Part shown: in pieces, positions 467 through 45,141 of the stretch
How the letters are laid out: each line of letters opens with the position of its first letter
Position numbering within the stretch: position 1 is the first letter of the stretch
DNA from: an uncultured Dehalococcoidia bacterium
Lineage (GTDB): Bacteria; Chloroflexota; Dehalococcoidia; Lucifugimonadales; UBA3495
NCBI GenBank assembly: GCA_951813535.1
Contig: OX638345.1
Span: 11,029 to 75,028 of the forward strand
Reading direction: 5' to 3'
Length of the DNA: 64,000 nt
Made by a program: the position numbers and the translations under genes
Notes under the pieces: model-generated
Told to the model about the DNA's origin: nothing
The model's database searches: none
What the model saw: the letters and a program-made list of their open reading frames with translations, nothing else

Positions 467-1438
467 ATGCAATACACGCAACTCGGCCGCACCGGCCTCA
501 CCGTATCCCGGGCCGGCTTCGGCGGCGGCGGCATCGGTCAGGTCTGGGGAGCCACCGACGAGAACGAGGCCATCGCCTCCGTTCACCGGGCCCTGGATCT
601 GGGCATCACCTTCTTCGACGTTGCCCCGTCCTACGGCGACGGCAAGGCCGAGGAGGCCCTGGGCAAAGCGCTGGAGAGCCGCACCGATCCGGTGGTGGTT
701 GCCACCAAGGTGCGGCTTCGCGCTGACGAGATGGACGACGTGTCCGGAGCGGTTCAACGCTCCGTGGAAACCAGCCTGCGCCGCCTCCGGCGCGATTCCG
801 TGGACGTGCTCCACGTGCACAACCGGTTCACCGAGCACCGGGGCGAGGTCGCGGACTCGCTGTCGGCCGACGACGTGCTCGGCCCGGTGCTCGATGCCTA
901 CCGGGCCGTCCAGCGGGCGGGCAAGACCCGATTCATCGGCCTGTCCGCCATGGACCACCACGTGCCCACCATGCGCCGCATCCTCGAGGCCAACGAGTAC
1001 GACACCGTCCTCGCCTACTACAACCTGTTGAACCGCACCGGTATGGAGCCGCCACCGCCCGGTTTCAGCCAGCACGACAACGGCCAGATCATCCCGCTGG
1101 CGCGCAGCCTCGACATGGGCGTCATCGGCATCCGCTCCCACGCCGCCGGCGCGCTGACCGAAGCCCTCGACCGGCCCCCACGGCCCGGCGACGCGCTGAT
1201 GCAGAAGGATCTGGACAGCGTACAGAAACTGCGGTTCCTGCTCGATGGCCCCATACGGACGATGTCCCAGGCGGCGATGGTCTACTGCCTGATGAACCAG
1301 GACATCCACTCCACCGTTCCCGGCGTCAAGAACCGCGCCGAGGCGGAGGAAACCGCCGCCTGTGTCGATCTGCCTCCGATCCCGGCCGAGCACCTGGAGC
1401 GGTTGCGTCAGCTATACGAAAACGACTTCCGGGACTGA
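467..1438 (+). CDS. Aldo/keto reductase
   Basis: MQYTQLGRTGLTVSRAGFG, FFDVAPSYGDG, VATKV, LHVH and VPG motifs; start moved to ATG 467 after an AAGGA RBS. Confidence 0.92.
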   Translation: MQYTQLGRTGLTVSRAGFGGGGIGQVWGATDENEAIASVHRALDLGITFFDVAPSYGDGKAEEALGKALESRTDPVVVATKVRLRADEMDDVSGAVQRSVETSLRRLRRDSVDVLHVHNRFTEHRGEVADSLSADDVLGPVLDAYRAVQRAGKTRFIGLSAMDHHVPTMRRILEANEYDTVLAYYNLLNRTGMEPPPPGFSQHDNGQIIPLARSLDMGVIGIRSHAAGALTEALDRPPRPGDALMQKDLDSVQKLRFLLDGPIRTMSQAAMVYCLMNQDIHSTVPGVKNRAEAEETAACVDLPPIPAEHLERLRQLYENDFRD

Positions 1439-1479
1439 TTGCCAGTCCCGGAAGCAATATCCTGGGGTCGATTGGTCTC

Positions 1480-3276: not shown

Positions 3277-3324
3277 ATCAACTCCTCCGATAGGATTCAG
3301 TCGGAAACATTTCATAAACAGTCG

Positions 3325-4497
3325 CTAAATTCTACCCTCGGCGTCCAGCCCCAGTAACACCCGTCCGTACTCCTGCCCGCCCAGGTCCATGATCAGCGTA
3401 TCCCGGTGGGCCACGGCCTGGGCGTCCCGGTGGAACCGTTGCAACGGGTCGGACTCGAAAAGGCCATGCCCGCCGCTGATGTCAAAAATCCGGTTCACCG
3501 CCTGCAGGCACAGTTGAGTGACGTACGCCTTGTCCCGCCGGTACCTCGCCCGCTCCAATGTTGTGAATCCGTCGCCGGTCTCGCCCCGGTCCAGAACCTC
3601 GCGCACGTCCCGATCCATCAGAGCTTTGCCAGCGTCAATCTCTGCCGCGGCCTGGGACACTCGAATGTGCACCGCCGCCGAGTCCGCCGACTTCGCCGCC
3701 CCGGTGGTTCCGGCCGTTTTGGCGATGAACTCGTCCAACATGCCGTGGGCGATGCCCAGCATCGGGGCCACCAGGTCCCAGCCGAGGAGTACCGGTATCG
3801 GCAGACGGTACCGGCTCTGGCCGTGCAGTTCCCAGCCCGTCCAGTCGCCGTCGCCCGCTGTGCTCACATCCAGGATCCGGTGGGTCGGCACAAAGATGTC
3901 CTCCACCACGATGTCCTTGCTGCCACTGCCCCGCAATCCCGACACGAACCAGGTGTCCACGATTTCGTAGCAACCCCGTGGCGCCAGCGCCCAGTTCCGT
4001 TCGCCGATTCCCGGCACTCCCAGCATCAGCCAACTGGCCGCGTCGCACCCGCTGGAGAATTCCCACCTGCCCGTCAGCCGGTACCCGCCGGCCACGGGCG
4101 TGCAGGTGGACCGGCCCACGTTCAGCGAGCTGGAGCACAGCGCGTCCGGGTCCGACCCGAACACCTCCTCCTGCGCCGGCTCCGGCCAATACCCTACCAG
4201 CCACGCGTGCGCCGCCCACAGTCCGTAGCACCACGCCGTGGCCGGACACGCCCGCCCCAGCTCTGCCGCCACGTCCAGCGCCAATGCGTAGTCGATGTCC
4301 AGGCCGCCGTATCGTGCCGGCACTCCAATGCGATACAAACCCGACGCCAGCAGATCCTCGACCGTTTCTTCCGGCAGTTTCCGCAGTTCTTCGGCGCGTG
4401 GCGCGCGTTTCTTCAGGGCCGGCAGCATTTCCGACGCCCGCCCCATCAACTCGGAGGCGTCCGGGATTTCGCGGGCCTGTCGTCGCTTCGTTGTCAT
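3325..4497 (-). CDS. Acyl-CoA-dehydrogenase-fold flavin-dependent monooxygenase, oxygenase component (HsaA-like)
   Basis: LYRIGVPARYGG, GGYRLTGRWEFSSGCDAASW, WFVSGLRGSGSKD, LQRFHRDAQ; start codon uncertain. Confidence 0.88.
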   Translation of the reverse strand: MTTKRRQAREIPDASELMGRASEMLPALKKRAPRAEELRKLPEETVEDLLASGLYRIGVPARYGGLDIDYALALDVAAELGRACPATAWCYGLWAAHAWLVGYWPEPAQEEVFGSDPDALCSSSLNVGRSTCTPVAGGYRLTGRWEFSSGCDAASWLMLGVPGIGERNWALAPRGCYEIVDTWFVSGLRGSGSKDIVVEDIFVPTHRILDVSTAGDGDWTGWELHGQSRYRLPIPVLLGWDLVAPMLGIAHGMLDEFIAKTAGTTGAAKSADSAAVHIRVSQAAAEIDAGKALMDRDVREVLDRGETGDGFTTLERARYRRDKAYVTQLCLQAVNRIFDISGGHGLFESDPLQRFHRDAQAVAHRDTLIMDLGGQEYGRVLLGLDAEGRI

Positions 4498-4750
4498 TGA
4501 TTTGATCGGGGCCGGCGGCTGCGCAAATTCATACGGCGCGCAGCCTACCACGTACCTGCTGGACGCCGCCAACGCCGGCCTCGGACACGGCCTGCTGTCG
4601 CGCTATGTTATCATCCGGCACTCAAAGTGCCGGCGGCCAGGGGGAAAGCCCAGTGACAACATTCCCAGGCGATTTGCTGCGGAAGCGCGTGCTTCGCGCG
4701 GGCGCGGCCAGTAGCCTCCGCACATTGAGGACTCGCTGCCCGGATCCGGC

Positions 4751-5980
4751 ATGAGAGTATCGACCACTCTCCATCGCGCTTCCTCGCCGCTGGGCATCTT
4801 TCGGTACCGCGATTTCGCCTTCGTCTGGGCCTCCACCACCCTGGTCGGCATGGGTACGCAGATGGAATCTGCTGTCCTGGGCTGGTTCGTGCTGACCCTC
4901 ACCGATTCGCCCTTCCTGGTGGGCGCAATCGCCGCGGCGCGCATGGCGCTGAACTTCCTGGCGCTGTTTGCCGGCGCCCTGGCCGACCGGTTGCCCCGAA
5001 ATCGTCTTTTGGTTTCCGTGGAAATCATCATGGGGCTGATGGGCGGTTTGATGCTGGTCCTGATCGTGACCGATCTGCTGGAGGTGTGGCACATCTTCGC
5101 CATCACTCTGGTGATGGGGGTGATTCGCCTCTGCCAGATGCCCGTCGCCCAATCCCTCGTGGCCGACACCCTGCCCCCGGAACGACTGGGGCACGGAGCC
5201 GCGTTCAACACGGTGGCCATGAACATCGCCATGCTGTGCGGCCCCGTCATCGGCGGGTTTTTGTTCAAAGGATTCGGCCCCCAGGGCGCCTATCTGGCCG
5301 TCGCGTCCCTGTACCTGTGCGCCGGCATGGTCGCCTTGGGAATACGCACCCCGGTCTCGGTCCGAACTCGAGCGCCCGAGCGGGTGATGAGCACCGTTAT
5401 CGGCGGCTTGCGCTACGTCGCCGGCAACCAGGTGCTCTGGGCGGTCCTGGCGGTTGCGGTCATCATCAACCTGGCCGGCTGGACCGTGCACACCGGCCTG
5501 GCGCCCATCTTCGCCCGCGACGTGTTGGGCAGCGACTCCGCCGGTCTGGGGCTGCTGTTGTTCGCCTTCGGCAGCGGAGCCCTCAGCGGATCACTGGGTT
5601 TCACCATGTTGCCGAACCTGCGCCGCCCCGGGCTGTTGCTCATCCTTGCGGTGGTAACCTGGCACGGTTCCATTCTGCTTTTCTCGCTTTCGACGTCCTT
5701 TTACCTGTCTATGGCGATATTCGTCCTGGTGGGCATGTCCTTCGCCTCCACCCAGGTCCTGATCTTGACGCTGCTGCTGCGCACCACCGAGCAGCAATTC
5801 CGGGGACGCGTGATGAGCCTGCGGTCATTTGCGATCCTGGCCTACAGCTTCGGCAGCGTGGGGGCCGGCGCCATCGCGGGAGCATGGGGCGCGCCGGGCG
5901 CGGCCCAGGTTGTGGGCTTCACCGGCATCGCGTTGGTCGCGCTGTTGGCCCTGTTGGCTCCGCAGCTGCGCCGCGCCTGA
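4751..5980 (+). CDS. MFS transporter
   Basis: About 12 hydrophobic segments, GALADRLPRNRL motif A, FRGRVMS. Confidence 0.9.
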   Translation: MRVSTTLHRASSPLGIFRYRDFAFVWASTTLVGMGTQMESAVLGWFVLTLTDSPFLVGAIAAARMALNFLALFAGALADRLPRNRLLVSVEIIMGLMGGLMLVLIVTDLLEVWHIFAITLVMGVIRLCQMPVAQSLVADTLPPERLGHGAAFNTVAMNIAMLCGPVIGGFLFKGFGPQGAYLAVASLYLCAGMVALGIRTPVSVRTRAPERVMSTVIGGLRYVAGNQVLWAVLAVAVIINLAGWTVHTGLAPIFARDVLGSDSAGLGLLLFAFGSGALSGSLGFTMLPNLRRPGLLLILAVVTWHGSILLFSLSTSFYLSMAIFVLVGMSFASTQVLILTLLLRTTEQQFRGRVMSLRSFAILAYSFGSVGAGAIAGAWGAPGAAQVVGFTGIALVALLALLAPQLRRA

Positions 5981-6054
5981 CACTTGCGGCTCACGTCCCG
6001 GGTTCAACCGCCACCGTTCGTTCCAGCAGCCGCGTTGCAGGGTCCCGGCGCGAT

Positions 6055-7650
6055 TCAGCAGACAGCCAGCCGGTCTTTTCCAGGCTCCCTGGCGGTTGCC
6101 AACTTGACTACCGTGCGTACTCCGCCGAGCCCGGTGCGCTCCCGCGACTTTTTGCCGGGCACGACGTCTTCGGCCATCCTGCCGTCAACACTCGTCGACC
6201 GGGCGCGGCGCGCCCAAGTCGTGGCGGCCATGTTCGCCAGCTTCGCCGACATCGGTTCGCGCGCAGCGGCCCTCGCCCCGTCGTCTTTGCCGATTCGATA
6301 GATCGAGGAAATCAGGGCCCCCCCGACTACCACCACCACGTAGAAGAATGTGGCGAGCCCATGCCACAGGTAGCCACTGTTCAGCCTCTCCTGGGCCTCC
6401 TCCTGAGGATAGTCCAGTCGGCTGAAGTCAATCTCCCACGAAGTCCACCAATTGTGATCGGGGAGGACCGACGGGGTGTTGGGCGCCAGGTACGTCGTCA
6501 CCACCACGCCCGCTCCCAGGGAACCCATTGCGGCCAACAGCGCGATGGTGGTTACCAACGCCAATCGGCGGTCGCCGGCGTTGGGCCGCACCGCGGGATC
6601 TCGCAGTACCAAGAGCGCCATGAACACCCCGGCCAACGGCGGCAGCACTATCACCAGCTGAATCCAGAGCGAAATGTTGGAGAAGACCACTATCGACGCA
6701 TACGCGAACAGCGTCGGCGGCACGGTAACCGCCACCGCACGGCGCAGGGCATTGCTCCGGCTGTGATCGCCGGAATACTGCCATTGCCGGAGCAGGTGAA
6801 AAGCCAACCCCGCGATTGAGGCCAGCGCAAGGTTTACCTCCAGCGCCAACAGATAGGGGAGATGCGTGCCCGCGTAATCGCCGATCATATAGAGCCCGTA
6901 CGGATCCATTCGGATATAAGCCGATTGCAGCAGAAACGTACTCAGCAGGAAGAACACGGTGGTGCTGTAGAACTCGCCCAGGTCGTACGGCCGTCGTCGG
7001 TGCAACAATCCTTGCGCCGCCACCAGGGACATCATCGCCGCGACGTAAACAACGGGCATCCAGGTGTTGTTCCACCCGAACGCGGCGAATGCGTACCCGA
7101 CCGCGGCAATGCATACCCCCGTGAGTACGCACTTGTAGGACAGATAACGGATTATGCTTCCCATGTCCGGGATCAGGGTGTCGGGGACCAGGGTGTCCGA
7201 GCCCAGGTTGCTCGCGGCTCGATCGTTGGCGGAGGACACCACATGCTCACCGGCCGGAACTGGTCGCGGTTGTGGCTCCAGGTAAGCGTCCTCGCCCGCG
7301 TCGGCATCCGTCCAGTCGGCGGATCTTTGCTCACGGTACGGGCCGGCGTCTTCCTGAAACCCGGCCAGGATCATCAGACCCTCCACTTCAACGGGAGCGA
7401 GGTTGAGGGCGTTGGCGAAATCCTGCAGCCGCTCCACCGTGGGCAGCGTGGAGCCCGATTCCCACCTCGAAACCGTTACGTGGCTGTACCGCCCGGCGTA
7501 CTGGCCATTTACCTCCGACATCCGCTGCAGGAGGCTGGCCTGGGTCAATCCGTACCTGCCGTCACCCAGCGGAAAGGTTTCCCGATAGGCGCGCATCAAC
7601 ATGCCTACCTGTGCGGCTCTGGACCACCTGGCGTCACGCTCTGCTATCAC
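6055..7650 (-). CDS. XRE-type HTH protein fused to a ~8-TM membrane domain
   Basis: N-terminal GLTQASLL...SHVTVSRWESGSTLPTVERLQDFANALNL (XRE HTH), acidic linker, then about 8 hydrophobic helices. Confidence 0.75.
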   Translation of the reverse strand: MIAERDARWSRAAQVGMLMRAYRETFPLGDGRYGLTQASLLQRMSEVNGQYAGRYSHVTVSRWESGSTLPTVERLQDFANALNLAPVEVEGLMILAGFQEDAGPYREQRSADWTDADAGEDAYLEPQPRPVPAGEHVVSSANDRAASNLGSDTLVPDTLIPDMGSIIRYLSYKCVLTGVCIAAVGYAFAAFGWNNTWMPVVYVAAMMSLVAAQGLLHRRRPYDLGEFYSTTVFFLLSTFLLQSAYIRMDPYGLYMIGDYAGTHLPYLLALEVNLALASIAGLAFHLLRQWQYSGDHSRSNALRRAVAVTVPPTLFAYASIVVFSNISLWIQLVIVLPPLAGVFMALLVLRDPAVRPNAGDRRLALVTTIALLAAMGSLGAGVVVTTYLAPNTPSVLPDHNWWTSWEIDFSRLDYPQEEAQERLNSGYLWHGLATFFYVVVVVGGALISSIYRIGKDDGARAAAREPMSAKLANMAATTWARRARSTSVDGRMAEDVVPGKKSRERTGLGGVRTVVKLATAREPGKDRLAVC

Positions 7651-7720
7651 GATGCTTCCTGTATCAGGGTCTAGTCTGGGTATTTCCCAGCCACAGTATT
7701 ATCAAGGCTCGGAATCAACG

Positions 7721-7755
7721 TTGCAAGCAATTGCCGGATAATGCGACGCTTGCAA
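7721..7755. promoter_or_regulatory. Candidate operator: inverted repeat TTGCAAGC-N19-GCTTGCAA
   Basis: Perfect 8-bp inverted repeat in the AT-richer divergent intergenic region between the XRE-TM gene and the YbaY lipoprotein gene. Confidence 0.3.
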
Positions 7756-7979
7756 TCGAAACTGGCAGCGTGGAGACGGTCGCGCGGCAACCGAAATCCG
7801 TTTTCCATCTGATCTCGTATACCCTTCGATCTACAGTCTATCTACATTCATTGCGACGTACTCGGACAAAACGGCTGGGCAATATTGACCGTCAGACAAT
7901 CTCGACCGCCAAGAGAGTGATAGTTCCCGATCATCCCAGCAAATAGATACACGGCGCGGATCGGCGCCACGAGGAAATA

Positions 7980-33139: not shown

Positions 33140-36100
33140 CTAATGCCCCGTCTCAAAACAGAACAGGTCGGACTGGGGCGACCATTCACCCCAGTTGGCC
33201 CCCCATCGTCCGCGGACCTGGATGGCCAGGGAACCGTAGCCTGCCATGCTCACCGTGCCGTTCATCTCAAAGTAGCCGTGAGCTTCGCTTTCCCTGAAGC
33301 TGTAGTCGACCATGCCCGCGCCGTCTCTGGTGTTGATGTGGGTAGCCCATTCGTCGGCTTCCCGGTCGCCGGTGGGGCCAGACCAGATGACCAGGAAGTG
33401 CAGGTCGCCGTCGCAGGACTCCAGTTCCAGGAGGTTGCCGCTCCGGGCGTCGGGGTGGTCGTACTGGCCGGTGCTGTCCAGCCAGAAGACGCCGAGCGTC
33501 CCTACGTCGAAAGCCTCCACACCCGATGGGTCCGGCTCTGGCGCCTCCGGGGCCTGGGGGGTGCCCTTTCCGGATGCCCACGCGCCAGTGCCCACCCGGT
33601 TCACCGCCGCCACCTGCAATTCGTAGTGCGTCCGATTGGTGAGGCCGGTGATACCGTCGCTCTCAATCAGGTCATCGTTGGAGCGGGACAGGTAGTTCCA
33701 TGATGAGCTTCCTTGCTGGCGGTAGCGGACCCGGTACGAGGTAACGGGCGCCCGCGGGTCTTCACCCGGCGGCACGTTCCAGAGCAGGAAGAGGCTTTGG
33801 TCTCCGCTCCGTACAATCAGATCGGTGGGCGCCAGCGGCACGGTGGCCGGGCCCTCCGGCGTGGCGTCGGCGGTGGCAGCCGGACCCTCCAGCGTGCCGC
33901 GCATCGCTCGCACCTCGAAGGTGTAGCCGACCCGGTTGGTCAGGTTGCTCACCGGGTGGGACGTGGTGTCCCAGCGGCTGCCGGGCATCGCCGCCCAATC
34001 GGGGTCCCACTCGGCCACGGAGCTGAGCCGGTGCCGGTACTGGTAACCCGTGATGGAGTCGTCGCCGGAGTTATTCCAGTTCAGGGTGACCCGACCGTCG
34101 CCGGGTGTGGCGGCGAAGTTCGCCGGCGCGGTCAGCGGGCCCCGCGGTTTGGCGGTGGCGCGCGCCGCCGGCCCCGGGGTGTTGCCGCGCACCGCGCGCA
34201 ACTCGATGGTGTAGAGCAGATTGTTGGTCAACCCCGAAAGCGTGCGGGCGGTTGTCGTGGCGCCGCTGCCCGACATACGCGTCCAGTCGGGGTTCCAGTC
34301 CGAGTCCGATGTGTTCATGTAGCGGTACTGGTATCCGGTCAAGGTGGCGTCGTTGGGATCGTCCCAGGTCAGCGCGATTTCACCGTCGCCGGCGGAGGTC
34401 GCGGTCAAGTTGACCGGCGCTCCCAGCGAGCCCCTTGGAATTGACTTCACCTGACCCTCTTTGCCGGGCGTGTCCACACTATTGCGACGGTACACCGGAC
34501 GCACCTGGAAGGTGTACTCCATGCCGTTGGTCAAGCCGCCAACCATGTGCTCCGTGGTATCGCCGCTACTGCCCGAGACGTCCCCCCAGTTCGGGTTCCA
34601 GTCAGTGTCCGCGCCGCTCCGTGTCCGGTATTCGTACTTTTGTATCGTGTCGTCTCCGGGATCGTCCCATTTCAGCCCCACTTGCTGGTCGCCGGGGACG
34701 GCGCGAAGGTTCCGGACGTCGGCAACGTAGTCGACATCCTGGTCGCCGAACCCGTCCGCCTCCTTTCCGCTCGGGTCTTTGATGGGGTTGGTGCTGGGCT
34801 TGCTGTAGCTCACCGTGGCCGTCTGATCCCGGGTTACCGGGGCGGCTAGGGTCAGCGTGACCACGCTGCCGGCGATCGATACCCCGGTGGGGTTGGCGCC
34901 CGCGCCGGCGTCCACCTTTACGGTGAACGCGCTGTTGGCCGGGGCGGTGGTGTTCAGATCTTCGCTGTAGTTCAGGTAGAGGCTGGAATCCTCCACCTCG
35001 GCCGACACCAGGGCGGGCTTGGTGGTATCCACCCGGTGGTCCGACAGCGCCTCCTGTGCGAGATGCTCCAAGCTGGCGGGCACCTGCCGGTCGGTCTCCG
35101 TATGCATGAACTTGATGGAGCCTCCATTCAGGTCCAGGGAGTTAACGTCCCACGAGATGCCGTCGTAATCGTCGTCGCCGGACACCACGGTGTAGGAGAA
35201 GACCAGGGACTCGGAGTCGGAGCCGTTGTCGTAGGCGGCTTCGCGGGTGGAATCACCCAGGTTGAATGTGAACTCCGGCGTCCCGTGGGTGGTATCCACC
35301 GTAACCGGGCCGGTGAACGTAACCGTGAACTCGATGTCATCCCCGACATCGTAGTATCCGTTGGTTGGCGTCGACGTCAACGCTATGCCGGATACCTGCA
35401 GGGTATCGTCGTCCAATATGGTGACCGTGATCCGACAATCGCCGTGGGGCAACAGGTGTTCGTCCGGGCAGGCCGTGAAGAAGACCGACCAGGACTCATG
35501 CTGCATATCGATGTAGAACTGTTCACTGCCCTCGTAGACGGCGTCCTCGGTCGTTTGCACGGTCAACGGTTTGTCAGCCACGTAGGCGTCGCCCGAGGAG
35601 ACAAAGTCGCTCATGTACACATAAACGATGCCAGGCAAAACCGGAACGTAATCGCCGTCCGTCGCCGTATCGGGTACGGAATCCAGCTCAACCGCATCAG
35701 AATACTTACCCCTCGGCTCCGCCACGCCCGTGCCCGTGATGAACGACACCAGCACGTCCACGCTGTCTCCCTCCTCAACGATGTACGAGTAGTGCTTGGG
35801 GGCCAACGTGTAAAGGTCTCCAGTAACGGGCATCTTCATAAACACCGTCGCCGACCGGTTCGCCCCCACCGCCGGAGCGTGGTCGTCGTGCCACGCCACA
35901 GTTGCCGTCAGGTTTCCCGATGTATGGCCAACGTAGCTGCTGCGAAGGTATTTCGTCGCCGTGGTCTGGCTTGCTGGGATGGTGATGGTCTGCGGCTGGT
36001 GCGGGAACGCATCCAGGTATTCCACGTCCTGCGCGATCTCGAGCTCCACGGTCAAGTCCGCGTCCGAGGTGTTGGATCGCGTTACCCGGAATACCGCATC

Positions 36101-38728
36101 GGATATGATGGGCGTTGCGGTAGAATACACCGCCTCGATGGAAACCCGGGGCACCGTGCTGTTGTTGGTCACCGCCTGGTCCGTGAAACCGGGCGCGTCG
36201 TTGCCGGTGGCGTCCTTGATGACCGGTCCGCTGCTGGGCTTGGCGTAGCTGACCTTGACCGAGCCGTCGTTGTGGGCGATGGGCCTGGCCATTTTGAGCA
36301 CCACCGTGCTGCCGCTCACCGAAACGCAGTCGGTGGACGCCAGATCAACCGTGGCCTCGCTGGCCCCCGCCGGCGTCGCCTCCACGGTGAAGGCCGTCGT
36401 TGGAGGCGCCGATGAATCCTTGAGCGCCTCATTGTAGGTGATGGTCAGGGTCAGACCGTCGGCGGCCAATACCGCAGTCGAGTTCGCGGCCAGAGCAGGC
36501 GGGGTCACGTCCACCTTCAGGTTGCCCACGTCCTGATCTTCAAACGTGGCCGTCTCGTTGCCGAACTTGTCGGCAATCTTGTTGTCGGTGCCCGAGTCCG
36601 GCCTGGTGTAGGTCACTTTCACATTGCTGTCGGCCGACGTGACCGAGGACGCGGTGTCCAGGGTCAGCGTCACGCTGTTGCCGGAGATTGACGGGCTGCC
36701 TGTCAGCGTGAGGGTCTGCGCCGGGTCGTTTTTCTTCACCGTGAACGCGCTCTGGTCCAGCGATGCTGCCTCGTCCAGCGGCTCATTGAAGTTCAGCGTC
36801 AGTGTCGTATTGTCCACCGTGGCGGAGGCCAGCGTGGGAGCCGCCGCGTCCTGGCTCAGGTACAACGTGCGCTCGGCATGGCCGCTCCAGTCCTGCCCGG
36901 CGCTGGTGAACAGATAGGAGGATGTTCCGCCTACGACGGAGGAATCAAAGCCGTACTCCGCCGCGTCGCAAACGTGCAGCACCAGGTTCTTCTTGTCCGC
37001 TGCGGCGAGCGCAGCTTCGAGCTGGAAGGCCACAGTGTCGTTGGACGTCGTCAGGGCGTTGATCTCGTGGTCGGCGTCGCTGGCCGTGGTGAATGTGACA
37101 TCGTCCAGGCCGCCGTTGCCCCCGCTTTCCCGGAAACCGTAGAAGGTGTCCTGGGATACGGTCCACTTCTCGACCGCAACCTTGCCGGTCCACACCTGCG
37201 ATGCTCCGCCGGTGTAGGCAGGCGCGGCACACTCGGCGGCGGCGGTGATGACCTCGGTGGCCGCGCTGGTCAGGGGGCCGTTGGCGTATCCGTCGTCGTC
37301 GGTGTAGCTGACCAGCACCTTGATGGTCTTGCCCGCGTCGTCGTCCGTCAACCGGTAGTTGGCGGCGGTGCCGATGTAGTCCGCTTCCATGGTGGTCCCG
37401 GCCGAGTCGAACCGTTGCCAGCGATAGGCGAGGTTGATGAGTTCGCCATCGTCGTCGGTGTCGTAAATCCCGTCCACGCCGTTGGTGTCCGTGATGCTGG
37501 AGAGGTCGGCCGTCAACACCGCCGGCACGCGGAACACATTGGGCGCGTTGATCACTGGCGCGCCTTTAGGCGCCGAGTTCCTGGGAGCAGCCCGCACCTT
37601 GATTTTCAGGGATCGATTCCCGGACTCGTCGGCGAACGCTCCTTCGCTGCTGGCGGCGCGGGTCTGCGCCGTATTGCCGATGGATGCTCCGTCCAACGGC
37701 GTGCCGTCCTCGTCGTCGGTGCCGGCGAACTGCACGGAAACGCCAGCCGAGCCGTTATCAACCCTCAACCAGTACTCGGTGGACCCGGCAAGCACCGCGG
37801 TTGACGAGGTCGCCCGGTATATGTAGTCCCTGGTTGCGTCGGCGGTGAGGGAGTCCGGGACGAAGGTGTCGACCACCCCGACGCCGGTCGCGGACCCACT
37901 ATGCACCGTCAGCCGGGGAGACGAGGGGGCGTTGGGCCCGGTCTGGAGGCGAATTTCGATGGTGCCCACCGTGTAGCCAGCGTCATTGTCGCCCGTGGTG
38001 AACGACTGGGCGAAATCGTAGGATGCCAGGGAACCGGTGTCCGTCCCAGATTGCGCGATGTTGCTTACCATCACCGGGACCGAATTAATGGAGCCCCGGA
38101 CCTTTATCATCAACGCCGGTCCCGTGGTGTCGTACTGGAAACTGCCGGTGCTATCGTGCCCGCGCCTGTGGAACCGGTTGCCGATGGACCAGTCCGGCGC
38201 CGGGTCGGCGTCTTCGGTGTCGACAAGGGTGCCCCGCACCAACACATTGGATACGCCCTCAACTACCACCCAGTACTTCGTGGCCGGTTCCAGGTGGAAG
38301 CCCGCCGGGGTCGTGAACGTGTAGTCCCTGGCAAAGCCGGTCCGGAGACTGCCCGGGCCGGTCAGTGTCGCTCCCGACGAATGGTTGGGGTTGTACCTGA
38401 CCACCCTCACCGAAGGGACGGTCGTTGCCCCCAACGTCTGCAGCTTGAGATCAACGCTGTTGAGCGTGTAACCGGTGGGGTTGTTCCCGGTGGTGAATTC
38501 CTGGGCGACGTCCAGGGCCCCCAGGTCCTGTCCGAATTGGTTGGACCTCCCGATGTTGCTGACCAACGTCTGCGGCGACTGCGCCTGGGTCGTGCCCAGG
38601 AGGCTGAACAGGAGCAGGGCCAGCACGGCCGGGGCAAGCAGCCAGCGGGTCAAGGCGCGCGTCGTCGCTGCGCCGCCCGGCCGGTGGGGCCGGAATATGC
38701 AGCGAATTGAGGTGGGCAGAACTGACAT
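33140..38728 (-). CDS. Giant secreted adhesin-like protein (choice-of-anchor-R-like x2, SwmB-like x3, Calx-beta-like, fibronectin type III x4)
   Basis: Signal peptide ...LLFSLLGTTQA; AQEFTTG/AQSFTTG repeats; PTLASATVD..LTL.FNE.L repeats; WDDP...YQYR...GLTN...Y...VRA FN3 repeats. Confidence 0.88.
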   Translation of the reverse strand: MSVLPTSIRCIFRPHRPGGAATTRALTRWLLAPAVLALLLFSLLGTTQAQSPQTLVSNIGRSNQFGQDLGALDVAQEFTTGNNPTGYTLNSVDLKLQTLGATTVPSVRVVRYNPNHSSGATLTGPGSLRTGFARDYTFTTPAGFHLEPATKYWVVVEGVSNVLVRGTLVDTEDADPAPDWSIGNRFHRRGHDSTGSFQYDTTGPALMIKVRGSINSVPVMVSNIAQSGTDTGSLASYDFAQSFTTGDNDAGYTVGTIEIRLQTGPNAPSSPRLTVHSGSATGVGVVDTFVPDSLTADATRDYIYRATSSTAVLAGSTEYWLRVDNGSAGVSVQFAGTDDEDGTPLDGASIGNTAQTRAASSEGAFADESGNRSLKIKVRAAPRNSAPKGAPVINAPNVFRVPAVLTADLSSITDTNGVDGIYDTDDDGELINLAYRWQRFDSAGTTMEADYIGTAANYRLTDDDAGKTIKVLVSYTDDDGYANGPLTSAATEVITAAAECAAPAYTGGASQVWTGKVAVEKWTVSQDTFYGFRESGGNGGLDDVTFTTASDADHEINALTTSNDTVAFQLEAALAAADKKNLVLHVCDAAEYGFDSSVVGGTSSYLFTSAGQDWSGHAERTLYLSQDAAAPTLASATVDNTTLTLNFNEPLDEAASLDQSAFTVKKNDPAQTLTLTGSPSISGNSVTLTLDTASSVTSADSNVKVTYTRPDSGTDNKIADKFGNETATFEDQDVGNLKVDVTPPALAANSTAVLAADGLTLTITYNEALKDSSAPPTTAFTVEATPAGASEATVDLASTDCVSVSGSTVVLKMARPIAHNDGSVKVSYAKPSSGPVIKDATGNDAPGFTDQAVTNNSTVPRVSIEAVYSTATPIISDAVFRVTRSNTSDADLTVELEIAQDVEYLDAFPHQPQTITIPASQTTATKYLRSSYVGHTSGNLTATVAWHDDHAPAVGANRSATVFMKMPVTGDLYTLAPKHYSYIVEEGDSVDVLVSFITGTGVAEPRGKYSDAVELDSVPDTATDGDYVPVLPGIVYVYMSDFVSSGDAYVADKPLTVQTTEDAVYEGSEQFYIDMQHESWSVFFTACPDEHLLPHGDCRITVTILDDDTLQVSGIALTSTPTNGYYDVGDDIEFTVTFTGPVTVDTTHGTPEFTFNLGDSTREAAYDNGSDSESLVFSYTVVSGDDDYDGISWDVNSLDLNGGSIKFMHTETDRQVPASLEHLAQEALSDHRVDTTKPALVSAEVEDSSLYLNYSEDLNTTAPANSAFTVKVDAGAGANPTGVSIAGSVVTLTLAAPVTRDQTATVSYSKPSTNPIKDPSGKEADGFGDQDVDYVADVRNLRAVPGDQQVGLKWDDPGDDTIQKYEYRTRSGADTDWNPNWGDVSGSSGDTTEHMVGGLTNGMEYTFQVRPVYRRNSVDTPGKEGQVKSIPRGSLGAPVNLTATSAGDGEIALTWDDPNDATLTGYQYRYMNTSDSDWNPDWTRMSGSGATTTARTLSGLTNNLLYTIELRAVRGNTPGPAARATAKPRGPLTAPANFAATPGDGRVTLNWNNSGDDSITGYQYRHRLSSVAEWDPDWAAMPGSRWDTTSHPVSNLTNRVGYTFEVRAMRGTLEGPAATADATPEGPATVPLAPTDLIVRSGDQSLFLLWNVPPGEDPRAPVTSYRVRYRQQGSSSWNYLSRSNDDLIESDGITGLTNRTHYELQVAAVNRVGTGAWASGKGTPQAPEAPEPDPSGVEAFDVGTLGVFWLDSTGQYDHPDARSGNLLELESCDGDLHFLVIWSGPTGDREADEWATHINTRDGAGMVDYSFRESEAHGYFEMNGTVSMAGYGSLAIQVRGRWGANWGEWSPQSDLFCFETGH

Positions 38729-40596: not shown

Positions 40597-41163
40597 TTAG
40601 GCGTGGGCCAACGCGCTCAAACCAATCAGCGCCAGGCCCACGACAATCAGGGCTATGTGCACCCCAACCAGCGTCCACCGGCCCGGCCCGAATGGATCGT
40701 CCAGGAACCGCGGCACCGGCGCCAGGCGGAACCAGAACCAGAGACCCAGGACTCCGCCCATGAGCACGCCAGCGGTGGTCATCAACCAGCCAACCCTGGA
40801 TACTCCCCAGTCTGGGGGCAGGGCCGTCAGGCAAATTGCAACCAGGCCGACGCCAACCAGGGTCGAGGGCAGCGCCAGACCGTAGCGCGCCGTCGGCCAG
40901 CGCAGGCTGGCGGTCAGCAAAACCGGCATCAACGCCCAGCCTGCCGCCAGGGAGACGCCTACGAAAGCCGGAGTGTTCAAGGTTGCGAACTGGAATCCCC
41001 AGATCAAACCGAGGGCAACCACACTGGTAGCCGCCAGCCTGATGACGCGGACCCCGAAACGGGTGTCTCGCGTCATCTCCACCGACGTTTGACCACGGAC
41101 CAGGGAAGTCATTTCGGTCATCATCGCGGTTCCCGCGTTGGTCAGGCCACGTACGCTAGACAT
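40597..41163 (-). CDS. Hypothetical membrane protein (~5 TM)
   Basis: GAGGAGG RBS; overlaps the radical SAM 3' end by 22 nt; hydrophobic helices. Confidence 0.75.
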   Translation of the reverse strand: MSSVRGLTNAGTAMMTEMTSLVRGQTSVEMTRDTRFGVRVIRLAATSVVALGLIWGFQFATLNTPAFVGVSLAAGWALMPVLLTASLRWPTARYGLALPSTLVGVGLVAICLTALPPDWGVSRVGWLMTTAGVLMGGVLGLWFWFRLAPVPRFLDDPFGPGRWTLVGVHIALIVVGLALIGLSALAHA

Positions 41164-42491
41164 CGTGCTGCCTCCTCGCGCCGGGGCTGCCGAGCCGTGC
41201 GCACGTGATCGCGAAAGGCGTTCCTGCGACCGGCTTTGGCCTCGGCGGTGTATAGCTGCGTTGCCAGTTCGATGAGGCCGCGCTCCAGGTCCTCAACCGA
41301 CATCTGACTGGGTTGGAAGTTGACGTCGAACAAGGTGCATTTCTCCCAACCCGTGGGGTCCAGCAACCTGCCTTCTCCGAGCAGCCGCGAGTACAGCGGG
41401 GTCCCGGGAAAGGGCGTCATGACGGTAATCTGGACTTCGCACAGTCCGCTGTCCTCGACGAAGTCGCGCACGGCCGGGAAGCACTCTTCAGTATCGCCGT
41501 CCATCCCCAGCACGAAGCAACCGTTGACGGCGATGCCGTGGGACTGGATGCGCCGGATGGCCTCCCGGTAATCATCGAGACGCTTTCGTTTCCAGTTGTT
41601 GTTCAATTCGACGCCATCCAGGCTTCCGGCGGTGGGGCTCTCGAAGCCGATCAGGACTTCCGCACAACCCGATTCGCGCATCAGGTCGAGGATCTCGGGA
41701 TCGTCGGCGACGGCGACATCGGTCTCGGTGAACCACTTGACGCCTTCGTCCGCCAGGGCCCGCAGCAGTTTCTTCGAATGGGCGCGGTTGACGAAAGAGT
41801 TGTCGTCGGCGAACTCGATGAAGGGGCGCGGCCAGATCTCCTTGATCGCCTGTATCTCCCGCATCACGTTTTCCACGGGCTTCAACTTGTACCGCTTGGT
41901 CATCAAGATGGAACTGGCGCAGAAGTTGCACCGCCACGGGCAGCCCCGCTGGGTCTGCACCGTAATCCGGTTGTATTCGTCGGGGCTCAGCAGGTTGAAC
42001 CGGGGCAGCGGAGACTCAGCCAGATCGAACTCCTGCCCGTCGGCACGGTAGATGCCGCCCAGGCAGCCGTTCTGAAAGTCCTCCAGCACCCGGTGCCAGG
42101 TCAACTCGGCCTCGCCAACCACCACCGCGTCGCAGTGACGGATCGCCTCGTTGGGAAGGGCGGTGGCGTGGTGGCCGCCGATGACCGTTTTGATGCCCGC
42201 CTCGCAGTACCGATCAGCCAGAGCATATGCGTCCTTGACCTGGGCGGTGAACGTCGAGATGGCGGCCAGATCGCAGTCCGGCAGCCGGCCCAGCTTCCTG
42301 ATGTCGGGCACCTGGTGGTACTCGATCTCAAAGCATTCCGGCGTCATTCCCGCCAGGGTGAGCAGTGACAGGCTGGGCAGGGAGGCGATCACCTCCCCGC
42401 GCTCCATGAAGCCCGGCATGGTCATTCCCAACGCGGTGAGTTCCTCGTTGTAGGCGCGCACGCCGCTCATGGCAATCAGTGCAATCTTCAT
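41142..42491 (-). CDS. Cobalamin-binding radical SAM protein
   Basis: N-terminal B12-binding Rossmann domain (ISTFT, VIGGHHAT, VVVGEAE), RGCPWRCNFC CxxxCxxC, FADDN, GCFVLG, TPFPGTPLY. Confidence 0.92.
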   Translation of the reverse strand: MKIALIAMSGVRAYNEELTALGMTMPGFMERGEVIASLPSLSLLTLAGMTPECFEIEYHQVPDIRKLGRLPDCDLAAISTFTAQVKDAYALADRYCEAGIKTVIGGHHATALPNEAIRHCDAVVVGEAELTWHRVLEDFQNGCLGGIYRADGQEFDLAESPLPRFNLLSPDEYNRITVQTQRGCPWRCNFCASSILMTKRYKLKPVENVMREIQAIKEIWPRPFIEFADDNSFVNRAHSKKLLRALADEGVKWFTETDVAVADDPEILDLMRESGCAEVLIGFESPTAGSLDGVELNNNWKRKRLDDYREAIRRIQSHGIAVNGCFVLGMDGDTEECFPAVRDFVEDSGLCEVQITVMTPFPGTPLYSRLLGEGRLLDPTGWEKCTLFDVNFQPSQMSVEDLERGLIELATQLYTAEAKAGRRNAFRDHVRTARQPRREEAARCLAYVA

Positions 42492-42741
42492 CGTTCTGTC
42501 TCCTCTGGCTCAACCCTGGCGTTACGACGCGGCGTCGCAGCCATTCCGCATATTTGGTGTAGTCGTTATGGTTGAGCCTTTGCTTAATCAAATGGTATGG
42601 TCAAATATCTGACATATCCATAACGGTTCAGGGTATAGTTATGACGTTTACATGACAATTCTAGTGGCAGGTTTTTCGCGTCCCGACTGGATCCCGAAGG
42701 CCGGCCCGATTGCGCTTGTCGAGCAGTTCACGGAGGCGAGG

Positions 42742-45141
42742 ATGGGCACCACAAACGAACCGGCGACCCCAGGAATGCAGGCGATGCAGCACCGCCTGAC
42801 CAAGTTGAGCGAGGCGAGCCTGCGCATCAACGAGGACCTGGACTACCACAGCGTGCTGGAAGAGGTGACCAACAGCGCGCGCATCCTCACGGACGCGAGG
42901 TACGGCGCAACCACGGTCCTCGACCAGGCCAACCGTCTGGAGGAGTTCGTCACCTCGGGCCTGACTCCGGAAGAACACCGTCATCTGGCAGCGTTGCCCG
43001 AAAGCGCGCAATTCTTCAGTTACCTGAACGATTTCCCCGGTCCGCTCCGGATCGGCGACGTGGCATCGTACGTGGCCTCGCTGGGCATGGCGGAGTGGAC
43101 TCCTCCCGTGGCCGTCGCCTCTCTGCTGGTTGCTCCCATCCGCAACAAAGGCGTGCGCCTGGGTTCCATCTACGTGACGAAAGGTGAAACGGGCAGCGAG
43201 TTCACCCGCGAGGACGAGGACACCCTGGTGATGTTCGCGTCCCAGGCAGCGCTGGTCATCGCCAACGCCAGGAGGTACCGGGACGAGCAGCGGGCGAGGT
43301 CCGACCTGGAGGTCCTGGTAAGCATATGCCCGGTGGGCGTGGTGGTCTTCGACGCGAAATCAGGGGCGCCGGTGTCGTACAACCGCGAGACGCTCCGGAT
43401 AGTGGAGAGCATCCGGCCGCCCGACCAACCCGTCGAGCAGATGATGGACATTTTGAGCATCCGGCGGATTGATGGGCGCGAGGTCTCCCTGGAGAAATTC
43501 CCGTTGGCGCACCGTCTGAGCACCTACACCGCGCTGCGGGCCGAGGAGATCGTGCTGAAGGCGCCCGGCGGCAGGTCGGTCACGGTGCTGGTCAACGCTA
43601 CGGCCATCTATTCGGAGGATGGAAACGAGATGGAGTCGGTGGTTGTGACCCTTCAGGACATGACGCCCCTGGAGGACCTGGAAAGGCTACGGGCCGAATT
43701 CCTGGGTTTGGTCAGCTACGAACTGCGGACCCCGCTGGCCTCCATCAAGGGTTCGGCCGCAACACTGTTGGACGAGTCGGCAGACCTGAACCCCGCCGAG
43801 ACTCGACAGTTCCACACCATCATCAACGACCAGGCCGACCGGATGCGCAGGATGATCAGCGACCTGCTGGACACGGCTCATATCGAGTCCGGCACCCTTT
43901 CGGTGAACCCCGAGCCTTCGGACGTTGGGACTCTGGTGGAGCAGGCTGGAGTGTCGTTCGCCAGGGGTGGGGGCCGGAACGACCCGCAGGTGGACCTGCC
44001 GGCAGAACTCCCCGCCGTGATGGCCGACCGGGCGCGCATCATCCAGGTGATCAGCAACCTTCTGTCCAACGCAACCAGAAACGCGCGAGGGTCATCCGTC
44101 ATCAGGGTGAGAGCCGAGCATGATGGTTTATACGTCGCGGTTTCGGTGGAGGCCGAAGGGTGGGCGCTGCCGCCCGACCAACTGCCCAATCTGTTCCGGA
44201 AATACTCGCGTATCGATGGCGGCATGGTCGAACGGGACATCGCCGGGTACGGCCTCGGATTGTCCATCTGCAAGGGTATCGTCGAAGCCCACGGCGGCAG
44301 GATCTGGGCGGAAAGCGAAGGCCCGGACCGGGGCGTCCGGTTCACCTTCACGATCCCGGTCGTCGAACAATCCGTCCCGGAAGATCCGGTTCAATCTGAC
44401 CGGCCAACTGGCCGGTCGCGGCCCGGTGAAGCTGGCCCGGCGCGCATCCTCGTGGTGGAGGATGATCCCCAGACGCTGCGACACATGCGCGAGGTCCTTT
44501 CCAGGGTAGGTTACCCAACGATACTTGCCACGGATCCCGACGAGGCGCTTCGCCTGACGGAGTCGGAAAACCCCCAACTGGTGCTTTTGGAATTGGCGCT
44601 GCCCGGCGTCGACGGGTTTGAGCTGATGCAGGACATCCTTGACGTGGCCGACGTTCCGGTCATCTGCCTTTCCACCCACGGAAGAGACCAGGACGTCGAG
44701 CGGGCCCTTGACCTGGGCGCTGCGGACTACATGGTCAAGCCTTTCTCGCCCACGGAGCTGACGGCGCGGATCCGGGCCACGCTTCGCAAGGCGGCCGCGG
44801 CTGACCCTGGCGATGAGGCGTCGCCATTTGTCCAGGGAGACCTGACCATCGACTATGCCCAGCGCCGGGTGGAAATCGCGGGTCAGCCCGTCCATCTGAC
44901 CCCCATCGAATACGAAATGCTCCGCGTCCTGTCGCTGAACGGCGGGCGGGCGCTGACCCACGAGCAGTTGTTGCGGCGCGTCTGGCGCGTGACCAGCTCC
45001 GGTGATCCCCAGGTGGTTCGCACCCATATGCGCCGGCTCCGGCGCAAGCTGGGCGACGACGCGGACCGCCCGAGGTATATCTTCACCGAGCCGAGGGTCG
45101 GTTACCGCATGCCGGCGTCGAGCGCCGCGCACGGAGGCTAG
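42742..45141 (+). CDS. GAF-PAS-HisKA-HATPase-REC-winged-HTH fusion with substituted phosphotransfer residues
   Basis: VSYELRTPL (H-box), SNLLSNA, GYGLGLSICKGIVEAHGG, ILVVEDD...LLELALP...YMVKPF, OmpR-type C-terminus YIFTEPRVGY; GGAGG RBS before ATG 42742. Confidence 0.9.
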   Translation: MGTTNEPATPGMQAMQHRLTKLSEASLRINEDLDYHSVLEEVTNSARILTDARYGATTVLDQANRLEEFVTSGLTPEEHRHLAALPESAQFFSYLNDFPGPLRIGDVASYVASLGMAEWTPPVAVASLLVAPIRNKGVRLGSIYVTKGETGSEFTREDEDTLVMFASQAALVIANARRYRDEQRARSDLEVLVSICPVGVVVFDAKSGAPVSYNRETLRIVESIRPPDQPVEQMMDILSIRRIDGREVSLEKFPLAHRLSTYTALRAEEIVLKAPGGRSVTVLVNATAIYSEDGNEMESVVVTLQDMTPLEDLERLRAEFLGLVSYELRTPLASIKGSAATLLDESADLNPAETRQFHTIINDQADRMRRMISDLLDTAHIESGTLSVNPEPSDVGTLVEQAGVSFARGGGRNDPQVDLPAELPAVMADRARIIQVISNLLSNATRNARGSSVIRVRAEHDGLYVAVSVEAEGWALPPDQLPNLFRKYSRIDGGMVERDIAGYGLGLSICKGIVEAHGGRIWAESEGPDRGVRFTFTIPVVEQSVPEDPVQSDRPTGRSRPGEAGPARILVVEDDPQTLRHMREVLSRVGYPTILATDPDEALRLTESENPQLVLLELALPGVDGFELMQDILDVADVPVICLSTHGRDQDVERALDLGAADYMVKPFSPTELTARIRATLRKAAAADPGDEASPFVQGDLTIDYAQRRVEIAGQPVHLTPIEYEMLRVLSLNGGRALTHEQLLRRVWRVTSSGDPQVVRTHMRRLRRKLGDDADRPRYIFTEPRVGYRMPASSAAHGG

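Follow-up and report, generated by a model that had tools for sequence, protein, structure and literature searches.

A predicted pseudo-histidine kinase fused to a pseudo-receiver DNA-binding regulator, divergent to a B12-radical-SAM operon in the SAR202 cluster

Can a histidine kinase (HK) fused to its response regulator still regulate transcription once the residues of phosphotransfer have been replaced, and if so by what means? This question is raised by a gene at positions 42742 to 45141 (+) of a 64,000-nucleotide stretch of DNA (the window; positions 11,029 to 75,028 of contig OX638345.1, assembly GCA_951813535.1) from an uncultured Dehalococcoidia bacterium. The gene encodes an all-in-one pseudokinase-regulator of 799 amino acids (aa), here termed P0001, with five Pfam domains in one open frame. 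A preliminary description had reported an intact GAF-PAS-HisKA-HATPase-REC-winged helix-turn-helix (wHTH) open reading frame (ORF) in which the phospho-accepting His, the G1 Asp and the receiver Asp were replaced by Tyr, Ala and Glu, respectively, and had proposed that three targeted changes made it a phosphorylation-independent one-component or constitutive regulator, which probably controls the divergent operon for a B12-binding radical S-adenosylmethionine (rSAM) enzyme. Our analysis suggests, with moderate confidence, that P0001 is a DivL-like pseudokinase joined to a ChxR-like atypical receiver, and that it acts without phosphorylation as a local regulator of its own promoter and of the rSAM operon.

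Translation of the 42742 to 45141 frame revealed zero internal stop codons. The start codon at 42742 is preceded by a GGAGG Shine-Dalgarno sequence at 42732 to 42736 (6 nt before the start), and the ATG, GTG or TTG start codons of 14 orthologues were found to share its alignment column. All five Pfam domains, each on the forward strand, exceeded the gathering score: (i) GAF (42838 to 43260, aa 33-173), which is DevS/DosS GAF-A-like without the haem-ligating His; (ii) HisKA, or DHp (43690 to 43893, aa 317-384; 58.4 bits); (iii) HATPase_c, or CA (44026 to 44361, aa 429-540; 80.3 bits); (iv) the receiver, Response_reg (44446 to 44775, aa 569-678); and (v) Trans_reg_C, an OmpR/PhoB-type winged helix (44881 to 45111, aa 714-790; 76.9 bits over profile positions 1-77 of 77). 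The winged-helix half aligned end to end with the structures of KdpE and MtrA. A PAS-like domain (43333 to 43659 (+), aa 198-306) received no Pfam call in P0001 itself and was placed by the alpha/beta pattern of the AlphaFold2 (AF2) secondary structure, by Foldseek, in which about 400 columns aligned with the PAS-HK proteins VicK and YF1 (PDB 4i5s and 4gcz), and by weak PF00989 matches in homologues. No transmembrane segment was detected in P0001, the maximum KD19 value of 1.63 being located inside a PAS strand. The AF2 monomer was of moderate confidence (predicted local distance difference test score, 73.5; predicted template modelling score, 0.44), and interdomain contacts were not drawn from it.

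When aligned to the KdpE and HK853 structures and to 119 homologues, three residues of P0001 were found to fall at the canonical His, Asp and Asp columns: Tyr326 in the H-box SYELRTPL (TAC, 43717 to 43719); Ala471 in the G1 box VEAEGWA (GCC, 44152 to 44154), whose second Gly is also replaced, by Ala475; and Glu617 in receiver strand beta3, LLELALP (GAA, 44590 to 44592). The structure-based alignment set Glu617 opposite the acceptor Asp of KdpE, and the HK853 structures matched P0001 at an E-value of about 1e-33. Retained in the receiver were E573-D574-D575, S644, Y663 (K-3) and K666 of KPF, and the CA domain has kept the N-box Asn (N443) as well as its G2 box, GYGLGL (G502-x-G504-L-G506). The architecture, the three replacements and the conservation of the EDD pocket, the KPF Lys, the G2 box and the DNA-binding domain were therefore all confirmed as they had been described. 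At the level of domains P0001 qualifies as HisKA, HATPase_c, REC and Trans_reg_C, but it lacks the catalytic residues that define a kinase (His and G1 Asp) and a receiver (Asp). By these residues it is classed as an OmpR-type regulator with a pseudo-receiver, joined to a pseudo-histidine kinase; the kinase half is very probably dead.

The history of the substitutions was traced by alignment and maximum-likelihood tree of the 120 best 90%-identity clusters related to P0001, the related loci being from Dehalococcoidia/SAR202-cluster metagenome-assembled genomes (MAGs). Every protein of at least about 77% identity to P0001 was found to have the H-box Tyr and a non-Asp G1 residue, which runs counter to the alternative, raised earlier, that close orthologues keep H/D/D (H-box/G1/acceptor). 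These proteins formed a single 50-member clade (Shimodaira-Hasegawa-like approximate likelihood ratio test, 100), here called the Tyr clade. P0054, the immediate sister, has the state Q/D/D; one step further out lies a clade that is H/D/D except for one H/D/G and one Q/D/D member, and a 53-member clade at 65-70% identity is canonical. The H-box residue is Tyr in 50/50 members of the Tyr clade, encoded by TAT in 10 and TAC in 5 of 15 species, and this invariance with both codons in use argues that Tyr itself is selected. The G1 Asp is replaced in all 50 members (A41, V6, then T, S and G), and the ATP-contact columns Y447, S448, E450 and G475, invariant in the His clade, are relaxed in the Tyr clade, with N443 and the G2 box kept. 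Such G1 drift together with relaxed ATP-contact columns is the pattern that would be expected if nucleotide binding had been lost. The receiver acceptor was found to be D in 44, E in 3 and N in 3 members, with the codons GAT (12 orthologues), GAA (P0001), GAG and AAC. On the tree, Glu arose three times (P0001, GAA; another species, GAG; and P0024) and Asn twice. As reconstructed from this clade, the H>Y change and the loss of the G1 Asp form a linked, ancient pair, and the D>E change is recent and belongs to the P0001 lineage. The earlier idea of three targeted changes made as one conversion was thus not upheld, the first two being ancestral to the clade (n = 50) and the third later; Tyr and G1 loss co-occur in 50/50 members, Glu in only 3/50.

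Whether the replacements might be errors or the marks of a dying gene was also considered. That any of the three codons is a sequencing or assembly artefact, an idea for which the origin of the window from a single-contig, probably long-read assembled MAG could be cited, is scarcely credible: the Logan contigs of runs X1, X2 and X4 showed 0 differences over the three codons, and Tyr plus a non-Asp G1 residue are common to 49 other clusters. These runs are three samples of a single study, one of which may be the window's own assembly source, so their support is not fully independent; their agreement refutes the assembly-error alternative and indicates that the substitutions are real. An early pseudogene or neutral relic, that is, an inactivated two-component gene still free of stop codons, is extremely unlikely. 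It would account for the replacement of all three phosphotransfer residues, for a ratio of nonsynonymous to synonymous substitution (dN/dS) somewhat high for a housekeeping regulator, and for the position of the gene next to a tRNA-linked islet. Pairwise Nei-Gojobori medians for 15 species orthologues, uncorrected for phylogeny, gave a median dS of 0.51 and an overall dN/dS of 0.20, however, with values below 0.25 in every folded domain (DHp 0.08, PAS 0.10, wHTH 0.15, REC 0.17, GAF 0.23 and CA 0.24) and a higher value only in the inter-domain (REC) linker (0.69). The DHp domain, without its catalytic His, thus has the lowest dN/dS of any domain. P0001 carries only 4 private substitutions at sites conserved at ≥95%, among the fewest in the Tyr clade, the frame is intact in 9/9 genus genomes that have an orthologue, and the metagenome set holds 50 near-full-length clade members. 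The Tyr was kept through synonymous turnover, and gene order and the intergenic core are conserved (see below). The relaxed-selection alternative was not borne out by these data; the substitution pattern indicates that the gene is functional rather than decaying and that pseudogenisation is excluded. P0001 displays the hallmark of a DivL-like pseudo-histidine kinase, namely a fold that is kept under purifying selection with the His replaced.

Two genes divergent to the regulator form its presumptive target: the B12-binding rSAM gene (41142 to 42491 (-); 449 aa, Pfam B12-binding, Radical_SAM and DUF4070) and, overlapping its stop codon, a gene, probably co-transcribed with it, whose hydrophobic translation denotes a polytopic membrane protein (40597 to 41163 (-); 188 aa). 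Among NCBIfam models the best matches of the rSAM protein (HpnJ, PhpK and BchE) were far below cut-offs, and the 188-aa protein had no Pfam or NCBIfam match. The rSAM gene was found to be divergent and adjacent to the P0001 orthologue in 16/16 species-representative loci (86-93% identical), and the membrane protein was syntenic in 15/16 (76-84% identical), with no match in L011, the one representative locus in which the regulator gene is split into two ORFs. Genes downstream of the regulator vary among the 16 loci. When 25 genomes of the genus were compared, orthologues of P0001 and of the rSAM enzyme were present together in 9, always adjacent, and both were absent from the other 16. Synteny, co-occurrence and the conserved intergenic element bear out the proposed link between the regulator and the divergent operon, whose membrane protein and B12-rSAM enzyme probably remodel a membrane lipid. 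Runs containing the P0001 sequence include sponge and coral metagenomes, and the locus suggests that SAR202 bacteria associated with sponges and corals regulate the modification of lipids by B12-radical-SAM enzymes.

Related loci were consistent with this assignment. Two canonical H/D/D sister regulators of about 65% identity also neighbor B12-rSAM genes: at L135 (G010:C3:158000-168000, 861-5940 (-)) the regulator and the operon beside it are divergently oriented, the operon comprising genes for a fusion of a fatty-acid desaturase with a B12-radical-SAM protein (852 aa), for another B12-rSAM and for a 374-aa protein without an assigned family; L041 (1580-5740 (-)) has two distant B12-rSAMs upstream. 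This arrangement suggests that regulated lipid modification is a theme of the regulator family. In another family of the same order, at L134 (G025:C1:981500-994500, 5269-7912), orthologues of the rSAM enzyme (71% identity) and of the membrane protein form a pair that is divergent to the gene of a short LysR-type regulator, behind which lies a DDE transposase gene; because the LysR-type gene takes the regulator's place here, the rSAM/membrane module can swap its divergent regulator. The sister operons and the L134 arrangement together support a dedicated local regulator of a membrane-lipid-modifying module. The rSAM association may or may not predate the loss of His: the immediate sisters P0054 and P0093 (both Q/D/D) are not beside an rSAM gene, and the farther canonical L041 and L135 are beside other B12-rSAMs.

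The divergent intergenic region (42492 to 42741; 250 bp) was examined for elements through which such regulation could be exerted. A conserved core of about 75 bp (about 42590 to 42663) was found by MAFFT alignment to be almost invariant in 15 species, while the dS of the flanking genes is about 0.5. Within it lies box A, CTGACATATCCATAACG (42609 to 42625 (+); 17 nt), a candidate operator overlapping promoter-like hexamers. The exact 16-nt CTGACNTATCCATAAC was detected at P0001's own locus (L027) and at 11 Tyr-clade loci (10 distinct, with L003 and L004 identical), as well as upstream of the canonical sister regulators of L041 and L135; other orthologues have 1-2 differences and L037, of the canonical sister clade, has 3. 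In the 4.38-Mb genome box A is unique at ≤2 mismatches. Its presence upstream of the canonical sisters implies that the element is older than the loss of phosphotransfer and travels with the regulator gene. Box B, CATGACAATT (42651 to 42660 (+)), is conserved in the same 15-species alignment. Copies of TGAC are positioned at 42610, 42642 and 42653, the last two 11 bp apart, a spacing as would be expected for OmpR-family direct-repeat sites. In L135, L041 and L037 the sequence (A/G)TGACA, followed after 17 nt by TATAAT or TACAAT, was identified upstream of the regulator gene and resembles a promoter of that gene, so that box B may be the regulator's -35 element; boxes A and B may thus be promoter, operator or both, with promoter assignments in this region made by eye. 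A terminator scan of the intergenic region returned nothing, an Rfam search of 42300 to 42900 (E up to 10) gave only chance-level matches and no known riboswitch in the rSAM leader, and RNA-seq support for expression or a transcription start was sought, with the locus present in no RNA run.

Further repeats were observed in this region. The 5′ leader RNA of the rSAM gene (-) could form a conserved long-range stem of 8-9 bp, GGCUCAACC...GGUUGAGCC (42507 to 42515 / 42570 to 42578), which surrounds a GC-rich hairpin and ends a few nt before the rSAM Shine-Dalgarno sequence. Two of its pairs have compensatory changes among 14 species, and its fold z-score is -2.35, with no Rfam match; the stem may be structured RNA of the leader or else an inverted repeat at the level of the DNA. 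Perfect inverted repeats were also found at 42564 to 42571 / 42618 to 42625 (CGTTATGG/CCATAACG), with the right arm within box A, and at 42550 to 42556 / 42602 to 42608 (ATATTTG/CAAATAT). GTTATG occurs at 42565 and 42638 and, reversed, at 42619.

How might a regulator with a dead transmitter work? The closest precedent for the kinase half is DivL of Caulobacter crescentus, in which Tyr550 replaces the His; DivL has no kinase or phosphatase activity and binds nucleotide weakly, yet its DHp domain still docks a receiver and transmits conformational change (PMC4211667). P0001 resembles DivL in the His to Tyr change of a HisKA DHp domain with the CA domain retained (PDB 4q20; Foldseek template modelling score 0.79, 30% identity). 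The two proteins are not orthologous: DivL is membrane-anchored, has multiple PAS domains, carries neither a receiver nor a DNA-binding domain in its own chain, and senses DivK~P, a separate protein, to control another kinase, CckA, whereas P0001 has the receiver and wHTH in cis, has lost the G1 Asp and is predicted to have a transcriptional output. By analogy, the constraint on the DHp domain lends indirect support to a docking or allosteric relay in P0001. The receiver half finds its counterpart in the ChxR/HP1043-type aspartate-less or pseudo-receivers (PMC3960148, PMC4395418, PMC12632262), which share the OmpR-type REC-wHTH layout, the replaced acceptor Asp and the conserved S/T, K and K-3 Tyr residues. 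ChxR is a phosphorylation-independent OmpR-type dimer (PMC3960148), and phosphorylation-independent dimerisation and direct-repeat binding would be expected of P0001 by the same analogy. These regulators are stand-alone two-domain orphans, in contrast to P0001, which is tethered to a dimeric pseudokinase and two sensors and most of whose orthologues keep the Asp.

The one-chain design has a parallel in the hybrid two-component systems (HTCS) of Bacteroides, local operon regulators with sensor, HisKA, HATPase, REC and DNA-binding domains in a single chain; work on the HTCS shows that a DNA-binding domain tethered to a dimeric kinase needs an inhibitory contact between domains (PMC11253607). P0001 would face the same problem of restraining a dimer-tethered DNA-binding domain. 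The HTCS are inner-membrane proteins with periplasmic glycan sensors, an AraC-type DNA-binding domain and intact phosphotransfer, whereas the P0001 family is cytoplasmic with GAF/PAS sensors and an OmpR-type wHTH, and its phosphotransfer residues are often missing. PsmA of Streptomyces venezuelae (PMC12963549) is likewise a conserved hybrid histidine pseudokinase without the catalytic His or a canonical phosphorelay; unlike P0001, it is a polarisome component that interacts with DivIVA and has no DNA-binding output. In the literature we found no description of the combination of pseudokinase, pseudo-receiver and DNA-binding domain, of its conserved operator and target, or of the family-wide tendency described below. 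Each element of P0001 is already known; the combination appears to be new. Pseudo-histidine kinases and pseudo-receivers are known mostly as isolated cases with poorly understood mechanisms, and P0001 joins both. With a DNA-binding output, a conserved candidate operator and one obvious target operon, it offers a compact system in which control by a dead transmitter could be tested.

From these comparisons, we propose that P0001 is a soluble, probably dimeric regulator in one chain, descended from a fused histidine kinase, response regulator and OmpR-type transcription factor. In the ancestor of a SAR202 (Dehalococcoidia) clade the transmitter would have lost phosphotransfer, through the His to Tyr change and loss of the G1 Asp, while staying under strong selection, such that the DHp/CA core would now serve as a dimerisation and allosteric module like that of DivL. 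The GAF/PAS sensor would alter the conformation of the DHp helices, and the DHp/CA core would sequester or free the tethered REC-wHTH pair by docking rather than by phosphorylation. Once freed, the receivers would dimerise, aided by Glu617 together with S644 and K666, and then bind the TGAC repeats. Pseudo-receivers have Glu at the acceptor position more often than any other residue, and this Glu often mimics phosphorylation (PMC12632262); Glu617 may have rendered the P0001 lineage wholly phosphorylation-independent and possibly 'on'-biased, as in ChxR. The output would be local, exerted through the box A/TGAC core in the regulator's own upstream region on its own promoter and on the divergent B12-rSAM/membrane operon. 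The residues and their conservation, the purifying selection, the synteny and co-occurrence and the conserved cis-element are observed; we infer from them that P0001 neither binds ATP nor transfers phosphoryl groups, that it binds DNA at box A, and in which direction it regulates. The phosphorylation-independent regulator of the preliminary description is retained here in part: a gene under selection, a dead kinase half and the link to the operon agree with it, and a single coordinated change does not; constitutive activity is conjectural.

Several observations weigh against the proposed mechanism. In 44/50 orthologues the receiver has kept its Asp as well as the DD, S/T, Y and K residues. Most orthologues could thus still be phosphorylated in trans, so that the Tyr clade as a whole may use trans phosphorylation, by par28/par29 (paralogues in the same genome) or acetyl phosphate, with P0001 as an exception; only P0001 and a few other clade members would be fully phospho-blind. 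The E-x-x-T phosphatase motif beside Tyr326 (H+1 Glu, H+4 Thr) is kept in 49/50 members, which makes a phosphatase-only role possible in the orthologues. Acceptor change per unit branch length was 2.7-fold higher in the Tyr clade (5 changes over 4.25 tree-length units versus 3 over 6.88 elsewhere), an excess that is not significant (p = 0.15), and relaxed selection on the acceptor Asp is not claimed. Boxes A and B overlap promoter-like hexamers and may be promoter elements rather than an operator, and a simple sigma-70 scan of the intergenic region found no promoter. The AF2 model is only of moderate confidence and is silent on the dimer.

Part of this evidence would fit a trans-phosphorylated regulator, in which the dead transmitter is a scaffold or dedicated phosphatase, the receiver is phosphorylated by a paralogous kinase (maybe through DHp heterodimers) or by acetyl phosphate, and Glu617 marks a locked-on or partly active derivative. 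The retained receiver active site of the 44 orthologues, the E-x-x-T motif, the two canonical H/D/D paralogues in the same genome and the up to 13 family copies in other genomes of the genus all speak for this alternative, as does the finding that the His is dispensable for HisKA phosphatase activity (PMC12632262). We nonetheless consider it rather unlikely for P0001, whose Glu cannot accept a phosphoryl group and yet is found in a gene on which selection is not relaxed. Changes to Glu or Asn, moreover, occurred in the clade on five separate occasions, none of them accompanied by decay of the gene, and DivL, the precedent for the H>Y change, is without phosphatase activity. In a switch by tyrosine phosphorylation, Tyr326 would itself accept the phosphoryl group, in place of His~P chemistry, either from a bacterial tyrosine kinase or through activity left in the CA domain of P0001. 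Such a switch would explain why the H-box residue is strictly Tyr (50/50) and not any non-His residue, and the initial description of DivL was likewise of a tyrosine kinase, a name that survives in the title of PDB 4q20 ('tyrosine kinase (DivL)'). This switch is very unlikely, however, in that the G1 Asp and several further residues of ATP contact have been lost or relaxed, later work detected no autokinase activity of DivL (PMC4211667), and phospho-Tyr cannot donate to a receiver, which in P0001 has Glu in any case.

Loss of phosphotransfer was found to extend beyond the Tyr clade. The 4.38-Mb genome of the window encodes six further full-length P0001 paralogues (37-51% identity), with the H-box/G1/acceptor states H/D/D (par28 and par29), H/V/E (par30), Q/T/D (par31), E/V/D (par32) and A/A/D (par33). 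A family census was based on an exhaustive HMMER search of 50%-identity representatives, in which 122 of the best 150 relatives cover all three columns. The His was replaced in 43/122 (35%; R12, Q11, E7, D5, N4, Y2 and S2), the G1 Asp in 35/122 (29%) and the receiver Asp in 23/122 (19%, with E the commonest), while 63/122 (52%) were fully canonical. Among these representatives, uncorrected for phylogeny, loss of His was associated with loss of the G1 Asp (odds ratio 11.9, p = 3e-8) and with loss of the acceptor (odds ratio 3.8, p = 0.007). HisKA domains without the His amount to 0.9% in a representative proteome set (PMC12632262); set against this value, the 35% of the census and the same spectrum of states in the genome's own paralogues suggest that the fused architecture loses phosphotransfer unusually often. 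We tentatively extend this to the idea, which could well prove wrong, that the soluble GAF-PAS-HK-REC-wHTH regulators of SAR202, at up to 13 per genome, repeatedly drop phosphotransfer to become ligand-gated one-component factors with the dead core as an allosteric hinge, and include a selenocysteine (Sec)-GAF sub-branch. If so, kinase-regulator fusion would be an evolutionary path from two-component to one-component signalling; the census suggests that covalent fusion makes phosphotransfer dispensable, which bears on the interconversion of the two modes.

The ligand of the P0001 sensor was considered in relation to the haem sensors DevS/DosS of Mycobacterium (PDB 2w3d and 2y79). The N-terminal GAF domain of P0001 is a clear sequence homologue of DevS GAF-A (E-value of about 1e-21), but the column of the haem-ligating DevS His149 is Thr120 in P0001 and varies among S, N, R and E across the Tyr clade. 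Haem sensing by the P0001 GAF domain was rejected on the basis of this position. The His149-equivalent ligand ('HPPM') is retained in par30 to par33 (C1:3516687-3519002, 4119832-4122174 and 1817220-1822142) and is absent from P0001, par28 and par29. Judged by these ligand residues, sensor chemistry differs among the branches of the family.

In a subclade of distant P0001 paralogues, at least 10 copies, drawn from 8 genomes, were found to have a single in-frame TGA each; the subclade includes the tandem genes par32 and par33, which lie outside the window (C1:1817220-1819583 and C1:1819773-1822142, with the TGA at 1817322 and 1819875). The TGA is located in the DevS-like GAF domain, in the motif ..SA(TGA)xLTGARYG, and occupies the same column in the six copies checked from five genomes (relatives L122, L123, L125 and L126). 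In homologues this column is Cys (L128, TGT) or Ser (L129, TCA), and it is Arg47 in P0001; Cys occupies it in 35/151 aligned family sequences. A GC-rich hairpin begins about 12 nt past the UGA, and the genome has its own tRNA-SeC(tca) at c[2115006,2115102]. The argument for a selenocysteine insertion sequence from synonymous invariance is weakened by par30, which lacks the TGA and has the same hairpin codons. The TGA paralogues are good candidates for a new selenoprotein sensor family.

Elsewhere in the window, an ORF at 33140 to 38728 (-) encodes 1862 aa with fibronectin-III, SWM-repeat and Big_5 domains. Its product is probably a giant surface or adhesion protein, and proteins like it were found in fragments near other family paralogues (L017 and L028).

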